From NCBI GenBank assembly GCA_963838925.1, contig CAWISW010000003.1, positions 96,001-160,000 on the forward strand: a stretch of 64,000 nt of DNA, written 5' to 3'. A program made the translations under genes and the position numbers. Each line of letters opens with the position of its first letter. Position 1 is the stretch's first letter. This DNA comes from an uncultured Nitrososphaerota archaeon. Lineage in GTDB: Archaea > Thermoproteota > Nitrososphaeria > Nitrososphaerales > Gagatemarchaeaceae. Shown piece by piece: positions 44,393 to 50,163 of this stretch. The notes under the pieces are model-generated. The model was not told where the DNA came from and made no database searches. It saw only the letters and a program-made list of their open reading frames with translations.

Positions 44393-45051
44393 TCAGAACC
44401 CTATCGGCTCGCGGACGAGGACGACGGTGGAGCGCCCGGGCCAGTCCCCGTTGACTATCAGGAACTTCAGCAGCGCGCTGGGCATGCCGTACTTCTCCCT
44501 CGCCCGGATGTCTTCCTTCGGATAGGCGTAGAATTGCACCCTCGCCATGGCCGAGTCGAGGTCGGACACTATCTTCTGCGAGCCCACGACCCAGATCACC
44601 TTGCCGGCGCTGCTCGCGTACGGGCCGAGCTGGCTGCCGCTTGCGGACGCGGCGACGACCCTCCCGTCCTCGGTGATTGCGTGGACGCTTCCGACCACGA
44701 CGTCGGGGGAGGCGGAGAGCCTTCTCATCTCGGCCCTCTGGGTGTTCCTGTCCATCTTCTCCAGCTGCGGCATGACGGCGTTGAACTTGCCCGACCTGTT
44801 GATGTCGTCGAAGAGGCCCAGAGCCTCACGGTCTCGCTCGAGGCGGTAAGGATCGACTGGTCCTTGGGGAGGATCGAATTGACGTAGGCCCGGGCCTGTG
44901 CCGGGGTGTCGACAACTTCGACGGCGAAGTTGTGCGCCCTGAGGGCGCTCGCCGCCTTCTGGATCCTCTCCTCGGAGGCTGGCTTTGCGAACGACTCGTC
45001 TATCGGGAGCCCGAACTCGGTCTTGGTCTGAATCTGCTCTGTTGTGGTCAT
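44393..45051 (-). pseudogene. LUD-domain (LutC/YkgG-like) protein with a 1-nt frameshift near 44820
   Basis: '...ASSETVRL' continues in another frame as 'GLFDDINRSG...GSVHAITEDG...SGSQLGPYA..A.KVIWVVG.QKIV'. Confidence 0.75.
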
Positions 45052-45069
45052 ATCAATATCGGATATCCC

Positions 45070-45087
45070 ATATTGGGAGCCCAATAT
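45070..45087. promoter_or_regulatory. Palindromic operator over the LUD-gene TATA region
   Basis: ATATTGGG-AG-CCCAATAT, 19-36 nt upstream of ATG 45051. Confidence 0.5.
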
Positions 45088-45237
45088 AAGGGTGTTGGGA
45101 GGATCTTGGCTGCCGGCGGAGCTGTCCCGGCTCACCTGTTAGGTTTTGCGTTATTTCAACATAGTCTCTATAGCCCACATCGAAGTATAGAGGAGCCTTC
45201 GGGCTGGTTCATTATCCCGGGAGCCCTCTCTAGAGGT

Positions 45238-45760: not shown

Positions 45761-46717
45761 ATGTCCGTCACACATCCCGAAAGGGAAGCTTTTCGTCTTT
45801 GGATGAGCTCGGGCGAGAAGGTCGGCCAGGAGAGGATAGCCACGCAGAAGGAGGCCGTTGCGAAGCTGAAGGCGATCGTCGACGACCATGGCTACGACGA
45901 GGGGTTCCGGCTCTTCCTCACGGTCACGCTCAGGAAGTGGAACGGGATGGTGGCGACGGAGGAGGGCGACTGGATCAAGGCGCGGTTCGAGTTCTCCCAG
46001 GGCAGGAGGCTCGCCGAGACGCACGACCCCGGGAGCCTCCCCTGGTTCGACGCCGCCATAGAGGAGACGGAGGTCTGGACGGCCCTCACGTCGACCCGCC
46101 TCTCCTTCGACTCGCTCGAGGGCCTGTCGAAGAGGCTCGAGGAGGTCTCGATACTCTACGCCGCGGGCTCAGACCGGTCCAACGCGGAGTTCACGAGCGA
46201 CTGGAGCCAGTGGCTCAAGCTCTTCCTCGAGCCGGCCGTCCCTCCACAGGGCCTCTCCGAGAGGATCCTGACCTACGTCGAGACACGGATGCCTGAGGGA
46301 GAGCCCGGCGCGGAGCTTCCCGTGAGGGAGGTCCCGCTGGCCAAGGACGCGTTCGAGTGGAACTTCTTCTGGCTGTCGAGGCTTGCGCGGGAGACCACGA
46401 ACTCTCTGAAGGAGGTTCTCGGGGAGGAGGCGCCCCTCGAGGCCCTGGCGCGGGGCGCAGCCGTCCTAGCCGCCCCTCCCGGAGACCTCGCCCTGCTGCT
46501 CAAGCTGGACCTCTCGAGGGAGCGCGAGATCCCGCCCCCGCAGTCCTACGCGGAGCTGCTCCACCGTCTGAAGACAGACCTGGAGAACTTCAGGAGGGCG
46601 GAGGAGAGCTGCAAGGACTATCTCGCAGAGGTCAGGAGGCAGTGGGCGTCCTCCCCCCAGAAGAGGAAGGAGCAGGTGGCCAAGGCCGTCTTCCCCGAGA
46701 GGAAGCTCGTGCCGTGA
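45761..46717 (+). CDS. Hypothetical helical protein
   Basis: 318-aa ORF with host-like codon usage. Confidence 0.75.
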   Translation: MSVTHPEREAFRLWMSSGEKVGQERIATQKEAVAKLKAIVDDHGYDEGFRLFLTVTLRKWNGMVATEEGDWIKARFEFSQGRRLAETHDPGSLPWFDAAIEETEVWTALTSTRLSFDSLEGLSKRLEEVSILYAAGSDRSNAEFTSDWSQWLKLFLEPAVPPQGLSERILTYVETRMPEGEPGAELPVREVPLAKDAFEWNFFWLSRLARETTNSLKEVLGEEAPLEALARGAAVLAAPPGDLALLLKLDLSREREIPPPQSYAELLHRLKTDLENFRRAEESCKDYLAEVRRQWASSPQKRKEQVAKAVFPERKLVP

Positions 46718-47816: not shown

Positions 47817-47924
47817 ATCCCAGCTCCCTCTTCAGGAATTTAAGATTTGAGGGAGGAGGGCGCCCCGTTCTGAAGGGTTCCGGACAATATTAAATAATCG
47901 CGGGTTAGGTTTTTCCCTCGGGCC

Positions 47925-48767
47925 ATGGCAAAGAACATCTTCTCCGAGGTAGAGAAGCAGGCCGACGCCGGGGGCGCGTCCAGGGCGTCTTGGCGCGGGG
48001 TCCTGAGCCTCAACATCCCCACGCTGGGCCTGGGGGCGGTCGAGTACCACCTAAGGGCGGCCAAGGCCCACGGCGACCTCAAGCCCGTCAACTTCGTGAA
48101 GCTGGACAAGAAGACCGGGAAGGAGGTCGTGAGCCGGGAGGTCCCGAGGATGTACCGCTACAAGGAGGGCCCCGAGGGGGAGCGCATCGACGTGGAGGAG
48201 ATCTCTCCCGAGGACGCGAAGAAGAAGGTGAGGTACGACGGCAAGTACATGGTCTCCGTCCGGACTGAGAAGAGGTACTTCCTGAAGCACGAGCTCGAGA
48301 TGTCGGGCCACTGGGTCGAGGTGCCCGTCGACCGCCTCGTGGACAAGCAGGACGGCGAGGAGATAGAGCCCTTCGAGCGGACCACGCGCGTCGAGGTCGA
48401 CAAGGACGGGTTCGTGCCCATCGAGAGGCTCGAGGAGTACAAGTTCAAGGAGGTCTACCAGCTCTCGCCCGACACCGACAAGAGGGTGAAGGAGACCACC
48501 GCGAGGGTCAAGCAGCTCGCGCGCTACCTCCTGGAGAAGCACACGGCGCTCGTCGCGTTCTTCTCGTGGGGGAGGGGCTACCAGTTCTACACGGCGGTGA
48601 TCTACCCGTACGAGCGCAAGGACGGGAAGCTCTGGCTCCTGATGGGGATGAGCGAGGGCATCCTCAAGCTCGACACCGCGTGGGCGCTGGAAAGCGAGCA
48701 GGAGGGCGAGGGCCTCCCGCCTGTGCCGCAGGCTAGGAAGAAGCCCAAGGTCACGATATCGAAGTAG
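47925..48767 (+). CDS. Divergent Ku-like DNA end-binding protein (putative)
   Basis: 'RASWRGVLS', 'VNF..L.KKTG..V', 'RVEV...FVP.E.LE.Y....Y.L.PD', 'LVAFF...R...A.I.P....L.L' are colinear with prokaryotic Ku motifs; basic C-terminal tail. Confidence 0.65.
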   Translation: MAKNIFSEVEKQADAGGASRASWRGVLSLNIPTLGLGAVEYHLRAAKAHGDLKPVNFVKLDKKTGKEVVSREVPRMYRYKEGPEGERIDVEEISPEDAKKKVRYDGKYMVSVRTEKRYFLKHELEMSGHWVEVPVDRLVDKQDGEEIEPFERTTRVEVDKDGFVPIERLEEYKFKEVYQLSPDTDKRVKETTARVKQLARYLLEKHTALVAFFSWGRGYQFYTAVIYPYERKDGKLWLLMGMSEGILKLDTAWALESEQEGEGLPPVPQARKKPKVTISK

Positions 48768-48788
48768 CGTTGTCGTCAGGGTTCCCCG

Positions 48789-49616
48789 ATGAGTGACCTG
48801 CCGGAGTACGTCGCCGAGCACTTCGCCCACGCGGTCAAGCAGGACCTCGCGACCTGGCTGCTGAAGAATCCGTTGCCCTGTCTGGTCGAGCCAAAGATCG
48901 ACGGCATCAGGGTCTTCCTCTTCAAGAGCGGGGACAAGCTCGTCATCTCCAGCAAGCACGGGGCGATGTACACGCCGCAGTCGAGCCCCAAGGTCTTCGC
49001 AACCGTTCCCGAGTTCCTCCACGCCCCACACCAGATGATCCTCGACGGGGAGTACGTCGCGAAGAAGGGGGCGCTGTTCCTCTTCGACGTCCTCAACGTG
49101 GACGGCAGGGACGTCCGCTCGCTCCCCCTGACGGAGAGGAAGAAGATCCTCCGGGAGATACTCGAGGGGACGGGCCTCGAGGTGCCCTACAAGCTCGCAA
49201 AGTCCACGCAGGAGGTCCTCGCCCTCAAGGAGAAGTTCGTCAAACAAGGATACGAGGGCATACTCGCGAAGAATCCCCAGTCGGCGCACGGGCAGCCGGG
49301 CTCGTGGCTGAAGATGAAGAAGTACGACACGCTGGACGTCTTCGTCATGGGCTATGAGAGGACGCAGGACATGGAGATGACCGGCGTCCCCCGGTCCTGG
49401 TTCGTGGGCGTCTATGACGAGGACGGGCACCGCGTCCCGCTGGGCAAGGTGGGGGCCTTCGTCGAGAAGGTCGACCCGCGCAAGGTCGTGAAGGGCGCGG
49501 TCGTCGAGGTACGGTACCAGGAGCTGACCGAGGACAAGAAGCTCCGCGGCGCGTTCATCCTGAGGGTCAGGCACGACAAGCTGCCGAACGAATGCTCGGT
49601 CGCGCAGCTAAGGTGA
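48789..49616 (+). CDS. Minimal ATP-dependent DNA ligase (adenylation + OB domains)
   Basis: Motifs I 'EPKIDGIR', III 'LDGE', IIIa 'FDVL', IV 'EGILAK', V 'WLKMKK', VI 'RVRHDK'. Confidence 0.92.
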   Translation: MSDLPEYVAEHFAHAVKQDLATWLLKNPLPCLVEPKIDGIRVFLFKSGDKLVISSKHGAMYTPQSSPKVFATVPEFLHAPHQMILDGEYVAKKGALFLFDVLNVDGRDVRSLPLTERKKILREILEGTGLEVPYKLAKSTQEVLALKEKFVKQGYEGILAKNPQSAHGQPGSWLKMKKYDTLDVFVMGYERTQDMEMTGVPRSWFVGVYDEDGHRVPLGKVGAFVEKVDPRKVVKGAVVEVRYQELTEDKKLRGAFILRVRHDKLPNECSVAQLR

Positions 49617-49629
49617 GCTGTGGAGACCC

Positions 49630-50163
49630 TTGAAGAAAGACCTCGACCTGAAGTTCGCAAAGGAGGTCGCGGCGGACTTTCAGAAGAAGACCGCCGACCT
49701 ATACGCTAGGTGCGAGTTGGCCGGGAGCGCTCGCCGCAACTCTCCCACAGTCCACGACGTCGACTTCGCGGTCATCCCCCAGGGCGACGACTTTGGCAAG
49801 TGGAAGGCCGAGGTGACGAAGCGCGTCGAGAAGATCGGGGGCGCCGTGGCCACTTTCGGGGAGGTCATCTCCAACTTCACCTACAGGGGCGTGCAAATCA
49901 ACCTCTTCCTCTGTCCCGGGCCGGACTCTTGGGGCGTCACGCTGATGTGGGCGACCGGGCCGACTGGCCACACCATCGGGATGACGATTAAGGCCAAGAA
50001 GAAGGGTCTGCTGATCAACTCGAGGGGCATATGGACTCTGGCCGAGCCCCCGAAGCTGGTGCCGGCGAGGACGGAGCACGACGTCGGGAAGATTCTCGAC
50101 TGGAAGTACAAGCCCCCCGAGACGCGCGGGAAGGACACCAAGAAGGAGCCTGCCTTCTACTGA
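49630..50163 (+). CDS. Minimal family X DNA polymerase-like protein (palm + thumb only)
   Basis: 'AGSARR....HDVDF', 'QINLF', 'WATGP', 'AKKKGLLINSRGI', 'TE.DV...L...Y.PPE.R'. Confidence 0.85.
   Translation: MKKDLDLKFAKEVAADFQKKTADLYARCELAGSARRNSPTVHDVDFAVIPQGDDFGKWKAEVTKRVEKIGGAVATFGEVISNFTYRGVQINLFLCPGPDSWGVTLMWATGPTGHTIGMTIKAKKKGLLINSRGIWTLAEPPKLVPARTEHDVGKILDWKYKPPETRGKDTKKEPAFY

Follow-up and report, generated by a model that had tools for sequence, protein, structure and literature searches.

We analyzed a stretch of 64,000 nucleotides from an uncultured archaeon of the Nitrososphaerota (positions 96,001 to 160,000 of the forward strand of contig CAWISW010000003.1, assembly GCA_963838925.1), the whole of which is called the window hereafter, and focused on three closely packed genes in it which encode a divergent homolog of the protein Ku, a minimal ATP-dependent DNA ligase and a very small DNA polymerase of family X (mini-PolX). 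An earlier note, made from the sequence alone, had proposed that the open reading frame (ORF) at 47925-48767 encodes a highly divergent Ku homolog. Our analysis supports this identification and shows that the gene stands at the head of an operon, which we read, at a probability of roughly 0.68, as a self-contained end-joining module resembling NHEJ (non-homologous end joining), led by a true divergent Ku. The host lineage is probably that of group I.1c, the Gagatemarchaeaceae, which are soil Nitrososphaerales that do not oxidise ammonia. All three genes lie on one strand with gaps of 21 and 13 bases between them, and the features of the locus are as follows, with the evidence for each in brackets.

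47925..48767, + strand: divergent, single-domain Ku gene of 280 amino acids (aa), ATG start, no cysteine (ORF, Pfam, AlphaFold2 model, Foldseek, VIA-align, dimer prediction, homologs)
47979..48068, + strand: Ku residues 19-48, N-terminal barrel strands with the R.SW.G block, part of the predicted dimer interface (AlphaFold2, VIA-align, hhalign)
48069..48383, + strand: Ku residues 49-153, enlarged bridge or pillar region, about 48 residues longer than the canonical one (strands of the AlphaFold2 model, surplus in hhalign)
48384..48668, + strand: Ku residues 154-248, barrel half at the C-terminus, which alone is matched by Pfam Ku (Pfam; predicted local distance difference test, pLDDT, 82-96)
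48714..48764, + strand: conserved C-terminal tail of Ku, LPPVPQARKKPKVTISK, after an acidic linker (35 of 39 sequences and distant members)
48789..49616, + strand: minimal ATP-dependent DNA ligase of 275 aa, nucleotidyltransferase and putative OB parts only, 21 bases 3' of Ku (PF01068, NCBIfam, PDB matches)
49630..50163, + strand: mini-PolX of 177 aa, palm and thumb only, with the triad D43-D45-N91, 13 bases 3' of the ligase (PF14791, Thermus PolX, AlphaFold2, Foldseek)
47886..47900, + strand: candidate archaeal promoter, an A/T-rich TATA-like element about 25-40 bases 5' of the Ku start, with a short leader or none (read from the sequence)

The Ku ORF is a real gene and not a chance frame, since a word-indexed search of 5.8 billion proteins returned 343 homologs with E <= 1e-3, the best 120 of which are of near-equal length and 73-96% identical. 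When 1.84 billion cluster representatives were searched exhaustively with HMMER, just 58 clusters came up at the same threshold, and so few clusters alongside 343 homologs indicate that the family is conserved but narrow. The product of this gene is a true, very divergent Ku homolog. At the level of sequence models it sits at the edge of detection, yet it is visible to Pfam: the family Ku (PF02735) is matched with 35.6 bits against a gathering threshold of 25 (E 1.2e-8), a match limited to residues 144-237 in the C-terminal half of the protein, which are aligned with profile positions 68-162 of 190. The description as highly divergent was also apt, because only 11 of 20 members of the family reach Pfam Ku at E <= 0.01, the score on the bacterial Ku model is a small part of its cut-off (15.8 against 150 bits), and no solved Ku was found in the PDB by the protein sequence or by the family profile, which gave two chance matches with E > 1. 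Among the best 120 of the 343 homologs, 37 bear no precomputed Ku match; the expectation that such proteins would be annotated as hypothetical held within these 120 for all names from JGI and for five of the seven names from NCBI, and it failed for the other two, which NCBI calls "Ku protein".

For comparison with canonical Ku, a profile was built from eight genomes of the sister family, and hhalign aligned the divergent family with this canonical thaumarchaeal Ku at a probability of 13% and E 0.0022, with 19% identity over 115 columns. The alignment is weak but collinear from the N-terminal R.SW.G block through the ...Y.L.PD block, and it pairs R.SW.G.(L/I)S with the canonical N-terminal block and ...EY.FKEVYQLSPD with the canonical ...I.EKSYYIAPD. 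In this way the parallels to Ku which had been drawn in the earlier note were reproduced, and the strings quoted for them (SRASWRGVLSL, VNF..L...TG..V, RVEV...FVP.E.LE.Y.FKEVYQLSPD, QLARYL and VAFF) all occur in the translation. With 19% identity over 115 columns, a sequence tree comparing the protein with bacterial Ku, Ku70/80 and Gam would be untrustworthy. Between the two anchor blocks there are about 125 residues in the divergent Ku versus 77 in the canonical one, and this surplus of about 48 residues fits an enlarged bridge region, where an insertion had been suspected. The bridge cysteine motif is missing as well, just as had been read from the sequence: a W-C-P motif is invariant in the eight canonical thaumarchaeal Ku proteins, whereas the Ku here has no cysteine anywhere. 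Two distant members, P0129 and P0125, bear C..C...C..C insertions in the bridge region at differing sites, that of P0129 being located about where canonical Ku has its conserved cysteine; the insertion may be a zinc ribbon, which was either lost by the Ku here or gained independently by the two. Longer, fused forms of Ku were not found, which is weak evidence given the type of search used. The short basic tail RKKPKVTISK, noticed before at the C-terminus, is present in the translation and belongs to the pattern LP.VP.A+KKPKV.ISK, which is kept in 35 of the 39 printed Ku sequences, the other four being cut or disrupted copies. The tail is a candidate docking or DNA-contact motif.

The predicted structure of the protein was then compared with solved ones. 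The AlphaFold2 model, for which 20 sequences were aligned, has a mean pLDDT of 78 and a predicted template modelling score (pTM) of 0.57. Its N-terminal strands (residues 21-31 and 36-47) have a pLDDT of 86-92, and from residue 19 on the model aligns to the Ku chain of Mycobacterium tuberculosis from residue 1 in VIA-align, while in the bridge region long strands are formed by residues 67-81, 87-93 and 109-120. Foldseek gave 104 matches in the PDB at E <= 1e-3, and the matches listed are all chains of Ku-containing entries with probability 1.0, with Ku80 chains on top. VIA-align ranked the M. tuberculosis Ku first (9i91_A, Z 14.5, root-mean-square deviation 2.3 Å, 113 aligned residues, 20% identity), followed by the Ku of Bacillus subtilis (9vnq_A, Z 14.2) and human Ku80 chains (Z about 13). 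As far as a predicted structure goes, the Ku-type beta-barrel fold of the ORF product is settled.

For two copies of the chain a symmetric homodimer was predicted in a model without DNA, with a score of 0.56 versus 0.00 for the best of three controls. Of 30 proteins solved as one-chain pairs, 20 came up to the mark for a dimer, as did 1 of 23 whose solved structures are single chains; these counts are only rough here because a custom alignment was used. Across the runs the contact agreement is at least 85% and the partner pLDDT at least 75, and the confident contacts involve residues 19-48, 154-209 and 226-257, in the barrel and in the stretch 247-257. Ku is predicted in this way to form a two-fold dimer through its barrels; since Ku homodimers have already been solved, this outcome may stem from resemblance to those structures and not count as evidence of its own.

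What superposes rigidly is the barrel (113-127 residues), the bridge being matched solely when 167-177 residues are aligned more loosely, at about 9 Å, and barrels of non-Ku proteins also match, those of SPOC with Z 11.0 and of INTS13/14 with Z 11.3. One could therefore suppose that the protein keeps only a Ku/SPOC-like barrel and serves as a scaffold for the two enzymes without encircling DNA, the more so as its bridge is enlarged, lacks the canonical cysteine and makes no confident cross-subunit contacts. However, Ku chains beat the SPOC-type barrels by about 3 Z units, the looser alignments that take in the bridge are to Ku80, the bridge is modelled as long beta-hairpins (within residues 60-130, pLDDT 62-84) as expected for Ku pillars, and the extensive two-fold predicted dimer is Ku-like, so that we hold a mere scaffold to be very improbable. 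The identification as a divergent Ku homolog is thus borne out by the Pfam score above cut-off, by Ku as the best match in both Foldseek and VIA-align, by the predicted homodimer and by the ligase gene directly 3'.

This ligase matches PF01068 with 79 bits against a cut-off of 26.2, and its nearest NCBIfam model is NHEJ_ligase_lig (TIGR02779, the LigD ligase domain), on which its 104.2 bits stay below the cut-off of 227.75. Across 35 sequences, the catalytic lysine 36 of K.DG and the residues of the ligase motifs DGE, EG..K, W.K.K and R.DK either do not vary or are conserved to at least 90%. Its matches in the PDB are DNA ligases, including the LigD ligase domain of M. tuberculosis at E 4e-12, and the OB-fold families score just under their cut-offs (PF04679 23.3 versus 27.5 bits, PF14743 21.7 versus 28 bits). 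The ligase is the sole one of the three proteins with a match in PHROGs, and PADLOC gave no match for Ku, the ligase or mini-PolX.

Mini-PolX reaches 38.4 bits on the thumb family PF14791 (cut-off 25) and aligns to residues 181-317 of the 575-aa PolX of Thermus with E 5e-11. Its AlphaFold2 model has a pLDDT of 88.4, and the best Foldseek matches are Pol lambda on top, Pol beta and Thermus PolX, with query-based TM-scores (TMq) of 0.73-0.77; the protein is confidently predicted to have the palm and thumb of the Pol beta fold. The 8-kDa, fingers and PHP domains are missing from its 177 aa, the Thermus alignment beginning at residue 181. Its blocks D43/D45 (D.D), GS.RR and WATGP.GHT (TG..H) are invariant, which argues for a maintained and not a decaying nucleotide site. 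At the sugar-discriminating site Pol beta has the pair Tyr-Phe, and mini-PolX reads Trp-Ala at that position; one may speculate that the small residue there would allow ribonucleotides to be used.

Mini-PolX is also collinear with Pol X of African swine fever virus (ASFV), its residues 30-166 being aligned with residues 36-173 of 174 at E 0.05, and it lacks the 8-kDa lyase domain. These features would suit a trio that serves chiefly to repair nicks, gaps or abasic sites and not to join double-strand breaks, like the short-patch pair of ASFV, with the Ku-like protein as a clamp or as the supplier of a lyase; processing of abasic sites is reported for bacterial Ku proteins in the part of PMC4245934 used here, and neighbours in the window are genes related to oxidative stress (peroxiredoxin, DJ-1/PfpI and Nudix). 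However, these neighbours are not kept at other loci, an apurinic/apyrimidinic (AP) endonuclease is absent from the conserved unit, and the genome also encodes a full-length PolX of 579 aa and two long ligases, which are already available for nick and gap work. Moreover, to our knowledge every characterised Ku acts at DNA ends. Such a repair unit is hence regarded as unlikely.

The operon itself was surveyed in two collections, in both of which the trio was counted only at loci with at least 1750 bases 3' of Ku. Among 38 genome loci, which come from one-genome-per-species contigs, 35 extend so far and 33 of these have the order Ku-ligase-PolX; the two exceptions are a truncated Ku next to a TniQ gene and a locus with Ku and ligase only. 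Among 80 metagenome loci the order is found in 41 of 43, and the other two have Ku and ligase only, in one of which a TnpB gene pushes the ligase to the end of the contig. In addition, the ligase was seen in all seven further loci with 900-1749 bases 3' of Ku. These counts do not represent independent events, because the loci come from related organisms and may overlap between the collections. The flanking genes are not kept across the 38 genome loci, save for a GNAT gene in four close relatives.

At some loci other genes have entered the operon. A TnpB/OrfB_IS605 gene (L073 1132-2460, - strand, 82.6 bits) is inserted between Ku and ligase, and a TniQ gene (L040 6146-7645, - strand, 61.6 bits) adjoins a Ku gene truncated after residue 254. 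In some close relatives, Ku and ligase are separated by an ORF of 158-171 aa (L012 2510-2983, L018 5863-6375); in L012 it matches a LAGLIDADG endonuclease weakly (18.6 bits versus a cut-off of 23.1) and may represent a free-standing homing endonuclease within the end-joining operon. Between ligase and PolX, related ORFs of 160-190 aa without a Pfam family were observed (L019 6717-7286, L045 1454-1933). The ORFs between the genes were considered as further repair parts and rejected, as they are mobile or unrelated (OrfB_IS605/TnpB, TniQ, the weakly LAGLIDADG-like ORF, an aspartyl protease gene and one for a membrane protein).

Such repeated insertion of mobile genes into the trio (TnpB/OrfB_IS605 in L073, TniQ by the truncated Ku in L040, the LAGLIDADG-like ORF in L012), together with the variable flanks and a patchy occurrence within one family (43 of 97 genomes), might suggest that the module belongs to or stems from a mobile element or a virus and, instead of repairing the chromosome, protects or joins the linear DNA ends of that element, as phage Gam or mycobacteriophage Ku do. 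We find this reading quite improbable, because the inserted genes interrupt the trio rather than travel with it, none of the 81 pattern matches in IMG/VR encodes a relative, and Ku and PolX have no PHROG family. What is more, there is no tRNA gene within the 64-kb window, no integrase was found among the about 16 neighbouring ORFs to which the scan was confined, and these neighbours are ordinary metabolic and stress genes.

Regarding the distribution, an even sample of 301 genomes of the class was searched with the Ku family profile, which matched only the family of the window itself, in three genomes including this one; none of the 297 genomes of 14 other families gave a match. Canonical Ku, with 139-167 bits on the whole Pfam profile, is found in other families, namely in 20 of 39 genomes of the sister family (f4) and in one of four genomes of another (f5), while the divergent type was seen only in the window's own family (f1), where Pfam Ku gives 22-36 bits on part of the profile. 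Distant members with 33-47% identity occur in metagenomes, one of them being named "hypothetical protein" by NCBI and assigned to an uncultured Nitrososphaera. Two further copies deserve a remark: in a genome of the same genus a full-length divergent Ku (G330:C3:1963263-1964108) has two in-frame TGA codons and is likely a pseudogene, and a 75%-identical copy (P0093) on a contig of 1735 bases is labelled by NCBI as from a metagenome-assembled genome of a Rhabdochlamydiaceae bacterium, which is probably a misbinned archaeal contig. As to other repair genes, the LigD primase-polymerase (AEP Prim-Pol, PF21686) was not found in the genome to which the window belongs, so that PolX is the only polymerase linked to Ku; this genome being 87% complete, the missing match is no proof of absence. 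A 3'-phosphoesterase (LigD_N, PF13298, 128 bits) is encoded as a stand-alone protein of 199 aa, whose gene shares the contig with the trio but lies about 445 kb off, flanked by genes for a P-type ATPase and for membrane proteins, and is unlinked to the trio.

The neighbours scanned in the window encode peroxiredoxin, LUD, CBS, GNAT, DJ-1/PfpI, Nudix, metallophosphoesterase and malic enzyme. As possible parts of the system, the Nudix, metallophosphoesterase, DJ-1/PfpI, GNAT, coiled-coil and 318-aa ORFs were rejected, since they are not kept beside the trio in the 38 genome loci (apart from GNAT in the four close relatives); the 318-aa ORF (45761-46717, + strand), which lies upstream, has no Pfam family. 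At 44393-45135 on the - strand, two overlapping ORFs of 126 and 136 aa match LUD positions 67-150 and 1-47, and this split match may reflect a frameshifted gene or an assembly error. The TATA-like element 5' of Ku sits in a region of 63% G+C. A soil metatranscriptome run (X20) gave three contigs of about 89-95% identity on 48290-48768 and 49287-49464, in Ku and the ligase, which provide a weak hint at expression of these two genes, as DNA carry-over is possible and the uncovered stretches, including the PolX gene, are uninformative.

Several observations weigh against the reading as an end-joining module. The Ku scores only 15.8 bits (E 0.0075) on the bacterial Ku equivalog NCBIfam TIGR02772 (Ku_bact), whose cut-off is 150 bits, and its sequence similarity to canonical Ku is marginal. 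As SPOC and INTS13/14 come up to Z of about 11, the barrel alone is not specific to Ku. The bridge residues 49-153 lie outside the confident cross-subunit contacts in the model without DNA, so the Ku ring is something that we infer. Mini-PolX is without the 8-kDa and fingers parts, by which gapped DNA is gripped, and its Asn91 replaces the third catalytic aspartate (D243 of Thermus) in all 34 sequences, which makes it a PolX with an altered triad by the criterion of Prostova et al. (PMC9226535); in the part of that paper used here, PolXs of this kind are classed as polymerase-inactive, which was shown for two of them. Finally, the divergent Ku occurs in 43 of the 97 genomes of its own family and in 12 of the 26 high-quality ones, and with such a patchy occurrence the module must be dispensable.

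From the homology and folds of the three proteins, their gene order and the predicted Ku homodimer, we infer how an end-joining module of this kind would work. Two Ku chains would pair via their beta-barrels, and the enlarged bridge regions would close as a ring round duplex DNA at a break. Ku would then hold the ends and recruit both small enzymes, possibly via the conserved C-terminal tail. Mini-PolX would bind the aligned ends or short gaps and fill in a few nucleotides or, if its D-D-N site is inactive, merely stabilise the synapse, and the ligase would seal the nicks. A precedent in bacteria for a linkage of PolX with NHEJ is given in the cited part of PMC9226535. It might even be imagined that the trio represents a third self-contained prokaryotic end-joining design, in which a ring-forming Ku with enlarged bridge and a stand-alone minimal ligase act with a working D-D-N PolX, bridging ends or adding nucleotides with an unusual metal site, in place of AEP; this extension of the end-joining module is put forward tentatively, and we consider it rather doubtful.

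The Ku call itself is already within reach, as Pfam detects the family and NCBI names some copies "Ku protein". Nevertheless, our literature searches brought up no description of a Ku-ligase-mini-PolX operon, although genes of this kind could be listed in the supplements of two papers (PMC7554672, Data Set S1, and PMC9226535, Supplementary Table S3); nor did the searches yield a divergent Ku family of this type, a palm-thumb PolX with Asp-Asp-Asn accompanied by a minimal ligase, or a Ku in Gagatemarchaeaceae. In the main text of the genome paper on this family (PMC10640624), a search for six repair terms gave no match, and no mention of end joining was found there. End joining in archaea has been regarded as rare and scattered, with genes not in one operon, according to a portion of a preprint (bioRxiv 10.1101/2023.09.30.560322), and the thaumarchaeal cases in print are bacterial-type imports as far as the relevant part of PMC7554672 goes. 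Here, in an abundant archaeal group of acid soils, three very small proteins (280, 275 and 177 aa) are encoded in a tight operon, and the polymerase among them belongs to the family used by eukaryotes for end joining and is now met in an archaeon of the TACK lineage. If the reading as an end-joining module is true, the trio would rank among the smallest known end-joining kits that are complete and could easily be reconstituted, and it would offer a natural means of testing the abilities of a palm-thumb family-X core that has Asp-Asp-Asn. In addition, surveys of Ku by bacterial-type models undercount archaeal Ku.

The trio was also compared with known systems. Like the Ku-LigD systems of bacteria and archaea (Mycobacterium, Bacillus, and the Ku, Lig, Pol and PE set of Methanocella paludicola), it has a single-domain Ku of about 280 aa, which is a predicted homodimer, a dedicated ATP-dependent ligase nearest to the LigD-domain model and a tight linkage of the Ku and ligase genes. 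However, the Ku here fails the equivalog model (15.8 versus 150 bits), has about 48 extra bridge residues and no cysteine, the polymerase is of family X and not an AEP primase-polymerase, and the phosphoesterase is unlinked.

With the canonical Ku of the ammonia-oxidising Nitrososphaeraceae, the present one has the taxonomic order in common and both are Ku, but the families are different: the former has 139-167 bits on the whole Pfam profile and the latter 22-36 bits on part of it, with an hhalign probability of 13% between them. The NHEJ complex of ammonia-oxidising Nitrososphaerales is stated to be "acquired from bacteria" in the part of PMC7554672 drawn on here, and the full-strength Ku in the sister family fits this bacterial-type NHEJ; thaumarchaeal Ku is in print for Nitrososphaera and Nitrosocosmicus in the excerpted part of PMC11936186.

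Eukaryotic NHEJ (Ku70/80, Pol lambda/mu and ligase IV) likewise combines Ku, a family-X polymerase and an ATP-dependent ligase, and the top Foldseek matches are Pol lambda for PolX and Ku80 chains for Ku. On the other hand, the archaeal trio is without vWA, SAP and BRCT domains, its Ku is a predicted homodimer and not a heterodimer, and its PolX is a palm-thumb form with Asn; bacterial and eukaryotic Ku are not told apart by the structural scores (Z 14.5 versus about 13), from which no specific kinship follows. Pol X of ASFV (174 aa), which acts with a ligase, resembles mini-PolX in the palm-plus-thumb layout, in size and in the collinear alignment, whereas the two are weakly similar in sequence (E 0.05), Ku is absent from the viral system, and ASFV Pol X keeps three aspartates.

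The noncanonical prokaryotic PolXs, as described in the part of PMC9226535 used here, also have an altered triad and a linkage to end-joining genes, in the genome or in an operon: PolX stands next to LigD in alphaproteobacteria and next to an ATP-dependent ligase in Methanomicrobia. [quoted passage not shown]

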